Program-made: the position numbers and the translations under genes
From: an uncultured Elusimicrobia bacterium
Lineage (GTDB): Bacteria > Elusimicrobiota > Elusimicrobia > 2-01-FULL-59-12
NCBI GenBank assembly: GCA_963702895.1
Contig: OY969767.1
Span: 512,001 to 576,000 of the forward strand
Length of the DNA: 64,000 nt
Direction: 5' to 3'
The notes under the pieces: generated by a model
What the model was told of the DNA's origin: nothing
What the model saw: only the letters and a program-made list of their open reading frames with translations
Databases searched by the model: none
In this document: positions 5,139 to 55,795 of the stretch, one piece after another
How the letters are laid out: every line of letters starts with the position of its first letter
Numbering within the stretch: the first letter of the stretch is position 1

Positions 5139-5221
5139 GTCACCCCGGAGATCCGTAATCCGGGGTCCATCATCGACGTAAAAGACATGATGGATCCCGG
5201 CTGACGGCATGCCGGGATGAC
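5139..5221. repeat. REP-like palindromic doublet, family A (GTCA[C/T]CCC..hairpin..TCCA / TGGA..hairpin..GGGATGAC), long-loop type
   Basis: gtcaccccggagatccgtaatccggggtccatcat ... atgatggatcccggctgacggcatgccgggatgac. Confidence 0.9.
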
Positions 5222-19690: not shown

Positions 19691-20926
19691 TTGCGTCTTC
19701 ACGAATATCAAGCCAAAGCCGTCCTGCAGCAAGCAGGTCTTCCGGTTCCCGCTGGTGTGCCACTCCTTCAGAAGCAGGAGATGGCCTCTGTTTTGACCCG
19801 ATTGCCGCCCGGTCCCTGGGTGGTGAAAGCGCAAGTCCACACCGGAGGACGCGGCAAGGCAGGAGGCATCCTGAAAGCTCAAACGAGCGCCGATATCGAA
19901 AAGGCAGCCCAGGCCCTCTTTGAGAAAAAGCTCGTGACACACCAAACAGGACCGGATGGCATCCACATCCGAAAGCTTTATATCGAACAAGCCCAAAGCG
20001 TCACGCGAGAGCTCTATTTAGCCTGCGTGATGGATCGGGTCAAAGGACGTCCCGTGATGATGGCGTCACCGGAAGGGGGCATGGACATTGAGCAGCTCGC
20101 GCGCACCCGGCCCGAAGCTCTTTTTTATGTCGATGTCGATCCTTGGCAAGGACTTCCAGACTATCTTGCTCGCGCTCTCGCAAAACGCATGGGACTGAAG
20201 GGAGCGTCCTTAGGGGCGGTGGCTTCTGCTGCCTCCAAGGTGGCCAAGGCGTTTCTCGCATGGGACGCATCGCTCATCGAAGTGAATCCTCTTGGCCTGA
20301 CGGCGGATGAACGGGTGATCGTCATGGATGCGAAAATGAGTTTGGATGATAGCGCCCTTTACCGACATCCGGAAGCCCGAGCCTGGCGTGATCCGTCAGA
20401 AGAAAATCCTCTGGATGTGAGGGCCCAGGAAGCGGGTGTGAGTTATATCGCCCTCGCCGGCGACATTGGCTGCCTCGTCAATGGTGCGGGTCTGGCGATG
20501 GCGACGATGGACCTGATCAAGTTTCATGGCGGCGAGCCGGCCAACTTCCTTGATGTTGGCGGAGGAGCCGATGCCAAGCAGGTGACGGAGGCCTTCCGGA
20601 TCATCCTGGCGGACCCGAAGGTGAAGGGGATTCTCGTGAATATCTTTGGCGGCATCATGAAATGCGATGTGATCGCCGAAGGGATCGTGACCGCCGCCAG
20701 GGAAGTCGGCAAGGAAGTGCCGCTCGTGGTACGCCTGGAAGGTACGAATGTCGAGCTCGGGAGGAAAATCTTGCGGGATTCGGGCCTCAAGCTTGAAACC
20801 GCAAAAGATTTAACCGAAGCCGCTAAGAAAGTGATTACTGCAACTCAAAGATGTCATCCCCCGCGGTTGTCAGCGGGGGACGCCACACGACAGGCGTCCG
20901 ACCGTAGTGTGTCGGATCCATCATGA
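19691..20926 (+). CDS. sucC: Succinyl-CoA synthetase beta subunit (C-terminus runs into a REP element)
   Basis: [53 protein letters not shown] start. Confidence 0.96.
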
Positions 20927-25819: not shown

Positions 25820-25963
25820 CAGGGTGCCGAAAAAGGATATCGACGCCTCTTTTGACGTCACCCCGGCGGAAGCCGGGGTCCAGTTCGTCGACGATGTTCT
25901 GGATTCCGGCTTTCGCCGGAATGACGGCCAATAAGACCTTCTGAAGGGTTTTTCGGCAGCCTG
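25820..25963. mobile_element. 144-bp MITE with 15-bp TIRs and TTAG target duplication
   Basis: CAGGGTGCCGAAAAA ... TTTTTCGGCAGCCTG (14/15); TTAG at 25816-25819 and 25964-25967. Confidence 0.75.
25857..25925. repeat. Family A REP-like doublet, short-loop type
   Basis: gtcaccccggcggaagccggggtccag ... ctggattccggctttcgccggaatgac; arms match the flanks of the GIY-YIG gene at 31327 (26/27 and 27/27). Confidence 0.92.
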
Positions 25964-29995: not shown

Positions 29996-30058
29996 GTCAC
30001 CCCGGCGGATTGTTAGCCGGGGTCTATCATGATGGATCCCGGCTTTCGCCGGGATGAC
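29996..30058. repeat. Family A REP-like doublet (long-loop left arm, short-loop right arm)
   Basis: gtcaccccggcggattgttagccggggtctatcatgatggatcccggctttcgccgggatgac. Confidence 0.9.
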
Positions 30059-31291: not shown

Positions 31292-31644
31292 GTCACCCCG
31301 GCGAAAGCCGGGGTCCAGAGCACACCATGGAAAAACGGCCTTGCGTCTACATCCTAGCAAGTCATAGGAATGGCACACTGTACGTTGGCGTTACCTCAGA
31401 TTTGCTTAAACGAATTTGGGAGCACAAATATGATGTTGTTGAGGGATACACTAAGAAATACAAGGTTCATACGTTGGTTTGGTATGAAATGCATGTGACA
31501 ATGGATGCCGCGATCCGGGCGGAAAAGGCTCTCAAAGAGTGGAAGAGATCTTGGAAATTAGAGCTGATTGAAGAAAAAAATCCCGAGTGGAAAGACTTGT
31601 ATGAAGAACTGCTTTGACTGGATTCCGGCTTTCGCCGGAATGAC
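31292..31644 (+). mobile_element. REP-flanked GIY-YIG cassette 1
   Basis: Left arm 31292-31318, ORF 31327-31617, right arm 31618-31644 starting at the base after the stop codon. Confidence 0.75.
31327..31617 (+). CDS. Small stand-alone GIY-YIG nuclease
   Basis: VYILAS.RNGTLYVGVTSDL.KRI.EH, EK.LKEWKRSWK..LIE..NP.W.DL; AT-richer than flanks. Confidence 0.93.
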   Translation: MEKRPCVYILASHRNGTLYVGVTSDLLKRIWEHKYDVVEGYTKKYKVHTLVWYEMHVTMDAAIRAEKALKEWKRSWKLELIEEKNPEWKDLYEELL

Positions 31645-31649
31645 GATTT

Positions 31650-32948
31650 GTGAGTAGCAAAGTGGTCGTGGCTATGTCGGGCGGGGTCGATAGTTCTGTG
31701 GCCGCGGCGCTCCTCAAGGAGCAAGGCTATGACGTCTACGGCGTTACCATGCGCCTGGCCGATTGGCAGGCGACAGAAGGCCCCTCCTCCGCCAAGGCTA
31801 CGGAGGGCCAGCCCTCCATAGCCTCTGCGACGGAGGGCCAGCCCTCCATAGCCTCTGCGACGGAGGGCCAGCGGACCTTTGGGGGCTGCTGCGGTTCCAA
31901 GGATTTCTACGACGCGCGCTCCGTGGCGCAAACGCTGGGTATACCCCACTACAGCTTTGATTATGTGGAGAAGTTTCGGGGTTCTGTGATCGGCTATTTC
32001 AAGGACAGCTATTTAAAAGCGGAGACCCCCAATCCCTGTATCGCCTGTAACCGGCATGTGAAGTTCGGCGCGCTCCTGGAGAAGGCGCTCGCCCTCGGGG
32101 CGGATTACCTCGCGACGGGACATTACGCAAGAATCGACAGCCGTCCGAGGTCCGACGTCCGAGGCGCCGCACAACAGGAGCCCACCAGCCGTGTGGCGGG
32201 GCCGGAATCTGGCGTCGGACGTCGCACGTCGGACGAGTTTGTTCTGAAGAAAGCTGTTGATCCCGCCAAAGATCAATCCTACGTCCTTTACGGACTCGGC
32301 CAGAAAGAGCTGTCTCGGTTGCTCTTCCCCTTGGGGGGGCTTATGAAGCAGGATGTTCGCAAGATTGCCAGGCGCTACAATCTCCGCACGGCTGATAAGC
32401 CAGACAGCTATGAGATCTGCTTTGTGCCGAATGAGGATTATCGTCAGTTCTTGACCGAAGAAGTGCCGGAATCGCGTCGTCCCTCCGGCCCGATCCGTCA
32501 TGTGGACGGGAGGGTCTTGGGCACCCACCACGGGCTTCCGTTCTATACAATTGGCCAGCGCGAGGGACTTGGGATTTCGGTCGGACGGCCTCTTTATGTC
32601 ACAGCGCTTGAGCAGGCAACCAACACCCTGGTGGTGGGGTCCAAAGAGGATGTGCTCTCAACATCTTGCGTTGTTCGGGAGCTGAGCTGGGTGAGCGGCG
32701 AGGCGCCCAGCATGCCGGCCGAGGTAACGGCCAAAATCCGTTCACGTCACGTGCCCTCACCCTGCACCCTCTCCCGCGTGCACGCGGGAGAGGGAGAGTC
32801 CGACGCGAAGCGGAGCGGCGAGGGTGAGGGTAGAGTTTTTCTGACTTTTGGCAGCCCGCAGTCCGCCGTCACCCCCGGTCAGGTTGCTGTGTTCTATCAG
32901 GGTGACGAAGTCTTGGGAGGAGGAGTTATCGATCATGCCGAAAAATAA
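31650..32948 (+). CDS. mnmA: tRNA 2-thiouridylase MnmA with three in-frame repeat insertions
   Basis: SGGVDS, GCC, PNPCIACN, ATGHYAR, KDQSY, EICF, YTIGQREGLG, TPGQ. Confidence 0.96.
   Translation: MSSKVVVAMSGGVDSSVAAALLKEQGYDVYGVTMRLADWQATEGPSSAKATEGQPSIASATEGQPSIASATEGQRTFGGCCGSKDFYDARSVAQTLGIPHYSFDYVEKFRGSVIGYFKDSYLKAETPNPCIACNRHVKFGALLEKALALGADYLATGHYARIDSRPRSDVRGAAQQEPTSRVAGPESGVGRRTSDEFVLKKAVDPAKDQSYVLYGLGQKELSRLLFPLGGLMKQDVRKIARRYNLRTADKPDSYEICFVPNEDYRQFLTEEVPESRRPSGPIRHVDGRVLGTHHGLPFYTIGQREGLGISVGRPLYVTALEQATNTLVVGSKEDVLSTSCVVRELSWVSGEAPSMPAEVTAKIRSRHVPSPCTLSRVHAGEGESDAKRSGEGEGRVFLTFGSPQSAVTPGQVAVFYQGDEVLGGGVIDHAEK
31770..31872. repeat. 30-bp tandem hairpin repeat in frame within mnmA (ATEGQPSIAS)
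   Basis: gcgacggagggccagccctccatagcctct-like units at 31797 and 31827, with degenerate/partial units at 31770 and 31857. Confidence 0.9.
32143..32234. repeat. Inverted heptamer array (GTCCGAS x3 ... GTCGSAC x3) in frame within mnmA
   Basis: gtccgag gtccgac gtccgag ... gtcggac gtcgcac gtcggac. Confidence 0.88.
32754..32830. repeat. Family B palindrome (CCCTCACCC..CTCTCCC..GGGAGAG..GGGTGAGGG) in frame within mnmA
   Basis: Shares 30 identical nt (ctctcccgcgtgcacgcgggagagggagag) with the copy at 38871-38900. Confidence 0.9.
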
Positions 32949-37945: not shown

Positions 37946-38025
37946 GTCATCCCCCCCGGCCGTAAGGGGGGGATCCATCATCCAAGAAGGCATCATGGAT
38001 CCCGGCTGACGGCCGCCGGGATGAC
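37946..38025. repeat. Family A REP-like doublet, long-loop type
   Basis: gtcatcccccccggccgtaagggggggatccatc ... atggatcccggctgacggccgccgggatgac. Confidence 0.9.
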
Positions 38026-42228: not shown

Positions 42229-42602
42229 GTCATCCCGGCACGTTGTTAGCCGGGATCCACGGATGACCAATGAAAAGGCCCTGCGTATACATTCTGGCAA
42301 ACAAGCGAAACGGAACTCTTTACACGGGAGTGACTTCAAATCTGTCTCAACGCATTGAACAGCATAAGCGCAAATCAATGCCAGGGTTTACGGACAAATA
42401 TGCTGTCGATAAGTTAGTCTGGTATGAAGCTCACGATACGATGGAAGCGGCTATTGCCAGAGAACATGCGATCAAAGAATGGAAAAGGAAGTGGAAGTTA
42501 GAGTTGATCGAAAAGAAAAATCCGTACTGGAACGACTTAAGTGAAGAAGCAGCATCAATTTAATAACGCCGCTGGGCCCCGGCTGACGACCGCCGGGGTG
42601 AC
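42229..42602 (+). mobile_element. REP-flanked GIY-YIG cassette 2
   Basis: Left arm gtcatcccggcacgttgttagccgggatccac 42229-42260; ORF 42270-42563; right arm ctgggccccggctgacgaccgccggggtgac 42572-42602. Confidence 0.75.
42270..42563 (+). CDS. Small stand-alone GIY-YIG nuclease (paralog of 31327..31617)
   Basis: VYILANKRNGTLYTGVTSNL; about 62 of 94 aligned residues identical to the first copy by manual count. Confidence 0.93.
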   Translation: MKRPCVYILANKRNGTLYTGVTSNLSQRIEQHKRKSMPGFTDKYAVDKLVWYEAHDTMEAAIAREHAIKEWKRKWKLELIEKKNPYWNDLSEEAASI

Positions 42603-43322: not shown

Positions 43323-43381
43323 GTCATCCCCGTGGAAACGGGCCCCCCACACAACTGGCGGGCCGCTTTCGCGGGAATGAC
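43323..43381. repeat. Degenerate family A doublet, short-loop type
   Basis: gtcatccccgtggaaacggg ... ccgctttcgcgggaatgac. Confidence 0.75.
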
Positions 43382-43395
43382 ATCAAGGAGGATGT

Positions 43396-43965
43396 ATGCG
43401 AGGACAAGCGAAAGTAGGGCTTTTGGTTTTCTTGGGCGTGGTGTTGTTTGCTGCCGGATACGGCATCTCGACCTACAACAGATTGGTCAAGTTGAACGAG
43501 CAGATCCCAGCAGCCTGGTCTCAAGTCGAAAACGTCCTCCAGCGCCGCAATGACCTCATCCCGAATCTCGTCAACACGGTCAAAGGGTATGCCAAACACG
43601 AACAGCAGATCCTCACGGCGGTTACGGAGGCCTTGAAATCGTTCAACCGGGCGACCACCGTCTCTGACAAGATCGCCGCGGATAACACGATCTCGTCGCT
43701 CCTAGGGAGAATCCTCGCGGTTTCCCTTCAGTACCCCAACCTGAAAGCGGACGCGCAGTTCATGCGCCTCTCGGATGAGCTCGCCGGGACAGAAAACCGC
43801 ATCGCGGTGGAGCGTATGCGCTTTAACGACACGGTCAAAGACTACAACACCAAGGTGAAAACGTTCCCCACAAATCTCATCGCCAGACTTGGCGGATTCA
43901 AGGCTTCCGAAGACTATTTCAAGGCTGCCGAATCCGCAAAACAAGTCCCGAGCGTCCAGTTCTGA
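43396..43965 (+). CDS. lemA: LemA family protein
   Basis: YNRLV, WSQVENVLQRRNDLIPNLV.TVKGYA.HE, YPNLKA, ELAGTENRI. Confidence 0.95.
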   Translation: MRGQAKVGLLVFLGVVLFAAGYGISTYNRLVKLNEQIPAAWSQVENVLQRRNDLIPNLVNTVKGYAKHEQQILTAVTEALKSFNRATTVSDKIAADNTISSLLGRILAVSLQYPNLKADAQFMRLSDELAGTENRIAVERMRFNDTVKDYNTKVKTFPTNLIARLGGFKASEDYFKAAESAKQVPSVQF

Positions 43966-55043: not shown

Positions 55044-55153
55044 GTCACCCCGGCGTGTCGTAAGCCGGGGTCCACGGATGAAAAATATAGACATGATGGA
55101 TCCCCCGCTTACGACCGCGGGGGATGACGTCAAATGCGGCATGCCGGGATGAC
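55044..55153. repeat. Family A doublet (55044-55128) plus an extra partial right arm, between atpF and atpH
   Basis: gtcaccccggcgtgtcgtaagccggggtccac ... atggatcccccgcttacgaccgcgggggatgac ... ggcatgccgggatgac. Confidence 0.9.
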
Positions 55154-55707: not shown

Positions 55708-55795
55708 GTCATCCCCCACGGGTGTAAGTGGGGGATCCATCGTTTCTGAAGTTGAAATCGTGATAGATCCCCCGCTGACGGCCGCGGGGGATGAC
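55708..55795. repeat. Family A doublet between atpH and atpA
   Basis: gtcatcccccacgggtgtaagtgggggatccatc ... gatagatcccccgctgacggccgcgggggatgac. Confidence 0.9.

Follow-up and report, generated by a model that had tools for sequence, protein, structure and literature searches.

Two hairpin-framed GIY-YIG nuclease genes and their repeat family in an Elusimicrobia genome: a probable Ssn/SRM system

Introduction

The locus described here raises a simple question: why does the gene of a very small nuclease lie exactly between the two arms of a palindrome that recurs throughout its surroundings, and does the nuclease have anything to do with the spread of that palindrome? We address this for the window, namely the whole 64,000-nucleotide stretch analyzed (contig OY969767.1, positions 512,001 to 576,000), and for the genome to which it belongs (2.72 Mb, one contig; G000 in our numbering).

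A nuclease that has hairpin repeats as its targets is the subject of a paper by Chenal et al. (Nat Commun 2025, PMC11893778). SsnA from Neisseria meningitidis, a single-domain GIY-YIG protein of 94 amino acids (aa; CDD cd10448), is reported there to bind the NTS hairpin repeat (consensus CGTCATTCCCGCGMAVGCGGGAATCYRG) in single-stranded DNA (ssDNA) only and in one orientation only, and to cut a few bases upstream (5') of it, an activity lost in the variants Y6A, Y17A, and E64A. Three further homologs cleave their own repeats, bringing the enzymes assayed to four in all, and the paper reports no cleavage of double-stranded DNA (dsDNA) by the family members assayed. At least one SRM occurs near 71% of the homologs (on both sides in 42%), and a homolog is present in 81% of the genomes with more than 200 SRM. 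In Neisseria, SsnA reduces transformation by NTS-bearing DNA and trims incoming transforming DNA. The paper's Discussion draws the parallel with REP/RAYT systems and states that the order NTS-ssnA-NTS is the very architecture of an insertion sequence. A 2026 preprint that uses the SsnA repeats as a benchmark is the sole follow-up found in a literature search.

Anatomy of the ssn1 cassette

The gene in question, here called ssn1, is flanked by a class-V aminotransferase gene (iscS-like) and by mnmA. An earlier note on this DNA had placed it exactly between two palindrome arms, and this holds to the base (Table 1). The left arm (GTCACCCCGGCGAAAGCCGGGGTCCAG) is separated by an 8-nt gap from the ATG, and the gene ends in a TGA at 31615-31617. 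As ssDNA the left arm folds with -10.8 kcal/mol (z -3.9) and the right arm with -9.0 kcal/mol (z -5.0). Allowing up to three mismatches, the arm pattern is matched five times in the window vs zero times in 100 shuffles. The gene-less version with near-identical arms (25857-25925) could be confirmed as well: compared with the ssn1 arms, its right arm is identical and its left arm differs by one base (GGAA vs GAAA loop). Alternatively, this doublet can fold into a single long hairpin of -28.2 kcal/mol. Nine further sites had been listed (5139, 20853, 29996, 37946, 41220, 43323, 55044, 55708, and 57348), and a family member is indeed found at each of them, those at 20853, 43323, and 57348 being interrupted or fused variants.

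Table 1. Features of the two ssn loci and related hairpin doublets (window positions; ssn, GIY-YIG nuclease gene; S, short-loop; L, long-loop)
Feature	Position	Strand	Remarks
Gene-less L-type doublet	5139..5221	.	Genome arm search
Gene-less S-type doublet, two convergent arms	25857..25925	.	Arms 25857-25883 (+) and 25899-25925 (-); 15-nt spacer
Mixed doublet, L arm + S arm	29996..30058	.	Directly upstream of iscS
Left SRM hairpin arm of ssn1, S type	31292..31318	+	GTCA, 7-8 bp stem, GAAA loop, TCCAG; fits published SRM pattern
ssn1, 96-aa single-domain GIY-YIG nuclease gene	31327..31617	+	PF01541; stop codon included
Right SRM hairpin arm of ssn1, S type, inverted vs left arm	31618..31644	-	First base directly after the ssn1 stop codon
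Gene-less L-type doublet	37946..38025	.	Genome arm search
Left arm of ssn2, L type	42229..42259	+	9-nt loop; fits published SRM pattern
ssn2, 97-aa paralog	42270..42563	+	67% identical to ssn1 over 92 residues
Right arm of ssn2, L type	42573..42602	-	Tail CCCA, not TCCA; outside published SRM pattern
Gene-less L-type doublet	55044..55128	.	Genome arm search
Gene-less L-type doublet	55708..55795	.	Genome arm search

The ssn1 product matches PF01541 over residues 5-78 (E 1.3e-15; 57.8 bits vs a cut-off of 22.6) and consists of the GIY-YIG domain alone, with no extension past the 78-position domain. Y8, Y19, R29, and E66 are invariant among 16 aligned homologs, and Y8, Y19, and E66 are spaced by 11 and 47 residues, exactly as Y6, Y17, and E64 are in N. 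meningitidis SsnA; it is from this spacing, not from an alignment to SsnA, that we take these residues to be equivalent. Searching PDB sequences gave no match at E values up to 0.01, and among the NCBIfam profiles there were sub-threshold matches only, the best being a group I intron endonuclease model at 19.4 bits (cut-off 56).

Database searches returned 6712 relatives of the protein at E values up to 0.001, the best 120 of which are 70-79% identical to it, come from very different phyla, and in many cases lie on short contigs. Some Ssn proteins are near-identical between bins labeled as different phyla or classes (L030 with L023 and L022 with L038; for example, Terriglobia vs Gammaproteobacteria, the branches measuring 0.012 and 0), reflecting either very recent transfer or mis-binned contigs. 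In one homolog (P0062, locus L013), annotated at 142 aa, the reading frame runs through the downstream repeat and the tail carries the arm translation SPRRKPGSR. Such read-through tails may serve as markers of these repeats in protein databases.

A second gene with its own hairpin frame

Searching the whole genome with the ssn1 protein (tblastn) uncovered a second copy 11 kb downstream (ssn2, Table 1), which the earlier note had overlooked. The arms on its two sides are of a long-loop variant, in which an 8-9 nt loop takes the place of the tetraloop seen at ssn1. The genome contains ten PF01541 matches in total, of which ssn1 and ssn2 are the only ones with arms within 1.5 kb. In a metagenome search, no near kin of ssn2 above 69% identity was found.

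The hairpin family in the genome

To count the repeats genome-wide, a hairpin was defined as GTCA followed by a perfect stem of at least 7 bp, a loop of 3-12 nt, and a TCCA-like tail. This definition yields 264 intact arms, namely 105 short-loop (S) and 159 long-loop (L) arms, a count that excludes 44 arms carrying an insert (see below). The S arms have a 7-bp stem and mostly a GAAA or GGAA loop, and the loops of the L arms end in GTAA, GTCA, or GTTA. A strict regular expression finds 266 arms in the genome vs none in an order-2 Markov simulated genome. About 300 hairpins accompany the two ssn genes, spread over the genome mostly as convergent doublets. As ssDNA hairpins, single arms fold with -9 to -13 kcal/mol. 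Upstream of the GTCA, positions -1 (C, 82%), -3 (G, 78%), and -4 (T, 63%) are conserved.

The 88 convergent doublets (176 arms) are regular. Their spacers measure 0-27 nt and mostly 17 or 21 nt when counted after the TCCA tail, a scale on which the 15-nt spacer of the earlier note becomes 17. Arms pair like with like (46 LL, 29 SS, and 13 mixed doublets), and the spacers themselves are conserved and occur in both orientations, as a 17-nt sequence in SS doublets and a 21-nt sequence in LL doublets. One 69-nt doublet is present in five identical copies, and 30 of the 88 doublets have a counterpart with an identity of at least 95%. The identical copies show that the doublets have multiplied recently. 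Direct repeats of 2-6 nt flanking the 88 doublets, as expected from a target-site duplication, do not exceed chance. Convergent arms are found at a larger distance (224-816 nt) in five cases, and the only ones that hold cargo are the two ssn cassettes; the other three (224, 500, and 816 nt) are adjacent, neighboring, or interrupted elements.

Association of gene and repeat in other organisms

The earlier note had linked nuclease and repeat within the window, and suggested looking for arms beside homologous genes and for repeat numbers that follow the presence of the gene. Both associations are borne out, the former strongly and in two independent locus sets. In an alignment-based scan of named genomes (80 loci listed, among 533 confirmed relatives), a convergent arm lies no more than 120 nt from the gene in 65 of the 80 listed loci, which come from many phyla: upstream in 45, downstream in 48, and on both sides in 28. 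Arm density in these 80 loci amounts to 5.18 per kb near the gene vs 0.44 per kb in the remaining flanks, and in 12 of them the stop codon is directly followed by the downstream arm, the arrangement also seen at ssn1. A metagenome replicate (80 loci, fetched with ssn2) gave much the same picture, with an arm inside the same 120 nt in 67 loci, arms on both sides in 35, and densities of 6.46 vs 0.62 arms per kb. Arms of the opposite orientation also occur near the homologs (upstream in 26 and downstream in 24 of the 80 listed loci) and are common because whole doublets often flank the genes. The convergent frame around ssn is thus preferred, not exclusive.

Repeat number also follows the gene when our genome is compared with 40 relatives, which are not independent of each other and include several incomplete assemblies. 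An ssn gene was detected (E up to 1e-10) in 15 of these 41 genomes: in all five with at least 100 arms (our own included) and in none of the 13 with zero arms. Exceptions are four relatives with arms and no detected ssn, namely G014 (80 arms), G023 (35), G009 (27), and G004 (23).

Identity of the system

Taken together, ssn1, ssn2, and their hairpins very probably represent the Ssn/SRM system of Chenal et al. (PMC11893778). They share with it a protein of about 95 aa that consists of one GIY-YIG domain and has an identical catalytic Tyr/Tyr/Glu spacing, a gene framed by inverted CGTCA-stem-loop-stem-TCCAG hairpins (true for both genes here), hundreds of genomic hairpin copies, and an association of gene and repeat that extends across phyla. 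The published degenerate SRM pattern matches three of the four arms at the two ssn genes and occurs at 147 sites in the genome, three simulated genomes giving 18-29. No site in this genome matches the canonical Neisseria NTS pattern exactly. The proposal that a GIY-YIG nuclease is the cognate enzyme of the hairpin doublets was therefore right in substance, given the flank enrichment, the copy numbers, the lack of a usable RAYT (see below), and the biochemistry published for other members of the family; it is not new, however (PMC11893778).

The differences lie in the host and in the repeats. The system as such is already published; what is new is its host, Elusimicrobiota, a phylum absent among the carriers in the paper's genome table, which holds one Elusimicrobiota genome, listed without ssnA (based on 12 of the 14 supplementary files of PMC11893778). 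New, and like the host only in a minor way, are the presence of two ssn genes alongside two classes of hairpin, the REPIN-like doublets including the five identical copies, the lineage-specific cassette between iscS and mnmA, and the 44 arms with a nested insert at one stem position. Two paralogs in one genome set this case apart from the described family, as does the long-loop class (8-9 nt loop), which the published pattern mostly misses: it recognizes 81 of the 105 S arms and only 33 of the 159 L arms. This shows that the pattern undercounts repeats in some lineages. The regular convergent doublets with conserved spacers form a further difference, the main text of PMC11893778 using none of the terms "doublet", "convergent", or "pairs of".

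How, then, would the system work? ssn1 and ssn2 would encode tiny single-domain GIY-YIG endonucleases, each gene lying between two converging copies of the hairpin that its product recognizes. From the assayed members we infer, by analogy, that Ssn1 and Ssn2 cleave ssDNA: they would bind the hairpin in ssDNA only and in a single orientation, and then nick a few bases 5' of it. A possible role would be the restriction of hairpin-bearing ssDNA. Incoming ssDNA may be a substrate, since the genome encodes homologs of ComEC and DprA; such genes are widespread. Hypothetically, the hairpin doublets have multiplied with help from the nuclease. Whether the nuclease spreads its hairpins is a question left by the 2025 paper, and this genome offers a natural case for it, as a single complete chromosome provides filled, empty, and absent sites, identical doublets, and two paralogs with two hairpin classes.

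The iscS-mnmA junction and the question of mobility

The earlier note regarded the arm-framed gene as a candidate autonomous element and suggested comparing the iscS-mnmA junction in relatives. We sought this junction in ten members of the family, in seven of which it could be read. The two genes overlap (ATGA or GTGA) in G001, G002, G008, and G009 and are about 55 nt apart in G010. In G004 (L105:538-1376) the junction holds a toxin-antitoxin pair of a Polbeta nucleotidyltransferase and a HepT-like RNase, and in G005 (L112:1925-2615) a DUF2204 nucleotidyltransferase and a 66-aa ORF. No arm or doublet is present at any of the seven junctions. Thus, the junction is filled in our genome, cassette and doublet are absent in seven of seven, and the empty doublet state is seen in none. 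The absence of the ssn1 cassette from all seven shows that it was inserted in the lineage of the present genome, into a junction where the genes otherwise overlap. The junction itself is a recurrent insertion site for small selfish modules. Elsewhere in the relatives' genomes, none of 11 ssn loci contains iscS or mnmA, and nine of the 11 have arms beside the gene.

Insertion, however, is not the same as self-mobilization: the former part of the claim stands as a lineage-specific event, and the latter finds no backing in target-site duplications, none having been found. As an extension of the Ssn/SRM reading, arm-ssn-arm could be a self-mobilizing unit and the gene-less doublets its nonautonomous, MITE- or REPIN-like derivatives, Ssn cleaving extruded or single-stranded hairpins and host repair or annealing doing the rest. 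We consider this possible, though on balance rather unlikely. The gene sits exactly at the spacer position of a doublet. The 88 doublets have narrow spacers, which are conserved and occur in both orientations, and like pairs with like (46 LL and 29 SS vs 13 mixed). Five 69-nt copies are identical, and 30 of the 88 match another doublet at 95% identity or more. None of the seven readable relatives has the cassette at the junction, ssn occupies other loci in relatives, and proteins 70-79% identical across distant phyla (best 120 of 6712) are in keeping with movement as well. The same hypothesis was raised by Chenal et al. (PMC11893778).

Several points speak against it. If the published orientation rule (PMC11893778) applies, the two arms of a doublet would be cleavable on opposite strands, unlike the ends of IS200/IS605 elements. 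Direct repeats of 2-6 nt are no more frequent than by chance at the 88 doublets, and a recent gain was not caught: a 28-nt junction probe (iscS end) had no match among the metagenome contigs, and the search of sequencing runs for a close strain gave one run with a word share of 0.09. GIY-YIG enzymes hydrolyze DNA, and strand joining by them is not known, nor is a transposition chemistry for a hydrolytic GIY-YIG nuclease. The comparison with IS200/IS605 elements and their MITEs is split. Gene-bearing and gene-less versions with the same ends, of which some copies are identical, and arms that act as inverted ends are common to both, whereas the target-site duplication (88 doublets) and the transposase fold are absent here.

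On the far side of the junction, mnmA carries a 30-nt tandem repeat (window 31768-31872; 3.6 copies, of which 2.4 perfect) that includes the palindrome GGAGGGCCAGCCCTCC and is translated in frame near the MnmA N-terminus. In most relatives, MnmA matches begin only at about query residue 70, and tblastn matches that start at residues 1-4 are shorter than the query. The repeat stretch therefore appears to be an insertion.

Two hairpin classes, two enzymes?

With both hairpin classes present in quantity in this genome and one ssn gene framed by each, a more elaborate version of the mobile scenario suggests itself. Two two-tier systems would exist side by side (ssn1 with the short-loop and ssn2 with the long-loop hairpins), each with an autonomous arm-ssn-arm unit, some 90 doublets in all as nonautonomous members, and an enzyme devoted to its own class. 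We deem this slightly less probable still than self-mobilization as such.

The relatives speak partly for it. Their class make-up was obtained by subtracting the short-arm count from that of all arms. In seven of the nine relatives with one dominant class and a typable ssn flank, ssn is framed by arms of the class that predominates. An L-framed ssn is found in G007 (222 L, 0 S), G001 (126 L, 9 S), G006 (71 L, 3 S), and G003 (13 L, 1 S), and an S-framed ssn in G040 (209 S, 1 L) and G024 (24 S, 0 L); G011 fits weakly, and the two exceptions are G002 and G028. Both classes are numerous in G005 (79 S, 70 L), and the one gene found in it is S-framed. Outside the bacterial family of our genome L arms are rare, making up four of the 102 flanking arms at the metagenome loci.

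The proteins tell a different story. A tree built from 92 Ssn proteins on 96 columns is unresolved; it takes six changes to account for the long-loop label of six rows (of which L015 is a doubtful call), no better than in shuffles, and none of the residue columns separates the five long-loop-associated from the 68 short-loop-associated proteins. Separate enzyme specificities are argued against by both, as the tree does not group the L-associated enzymes and no alignment column sets them apart.

Less probable readings

GIY-YIG homing endonucleases exist, and filled and empty versions of one arm pair only 5.4 kb apart may bring to mind a classical one that cuts the dsDNA center of empty doublets, its gene being copied in by recombinational repair. 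We hold this to be highly improbable. The ssn1 protein is a bare 96-aa catalytic domain to which no DNA-binding domain or extension is joined, and it scores far below cut-off against the group I intron endonuclease model (19.4 vs 56 bits). Moreover, just two of 90 doublets are filled, the gene is not flanked by the two halves of the spacer that is conserved in empty doublets, and the family members assayed by Chenal et al. are reported not to cut dsDNA (PMC11893778).

Even less credible is an ordinary REP/REPIN family that depends on a RAYT or some other transposase and in which the GIY-YIG gene is a chance passenger. The likeness is real: short GC-rich extragenic hairpins form inverted doublets, the single-copy enzyme gene of REPINs is repeat-framed too, and the enzyme would, here by analogy, act on ssDNA hairpins. 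The 88 doublets with conserved spacers and the five identical copies also look like replicating units, although this is a resemblance only. The enzymes differ, a hydrolytic GIY-YIG nuclease taking the place of the HUH tyrosine transposase, and the genome contains no functional RAYT. The earlier note saw none in the window, and the same turns out to be true of the whole genome, where PF01797 (Y1_Tnp) finds an 84-aa fragment (about 23.3-25.6 bits; profile positions 10-64 of 121) and an 11.8-bit match, neither of them with arms within 1.5 kb. The fragment is an IS200-type Y1 remnant (L009:1456-1710; G000:C1 about 390674-390928) that has kept its HFHF motif and lacks the C-terminal part. A chance passenger is also at odds with the recurrence of the gene-repeat association in other organisms (65 of the 80 listed and 67 of the 80 metagenome loci).

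The idea that doublets are landing pads for assorted small genes is just as implausible and is contradicted in this genome: two small genes do lie inside doublets in the window, but both are ssn paralogs, the ssn cassettes are the only cargo among the five wide pairs (the other three, of 224, 500, and 816 nt, being neighboring or interrupted elements), and the other cassettes at the relatives' iscS-mnmA junction carry no arms.

A nested insert in the hairpin arms

Beyond the intact arms, 44 hairpin arms in the genome are interrupted in the descending stem by an insert, always at the same point (after GCCGG). The insert is 45-46 nt long in 34 arms, 87-89 nt in eight, and about 130 nt in two, the longer ones resembling inserts within inserts. 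Its ends are imperfectly inverted (CCCTCCAnAC at one end, GTGGAGAC or GGCGGAC at the other). The core sequences are nearly confined to arms: one core has 18 of its 22 occurrences there, and three of the other four fall in degenerate arms. The insert has the appearance of a second-order element with the Ssn hairpin as its target. Examples can be found at G000:C1:237656-237729, 1204593-1204665, 975195-975310, and 1113118-1113278, and the window has related interrupted arms near 20853-20926 and 43323-43400.
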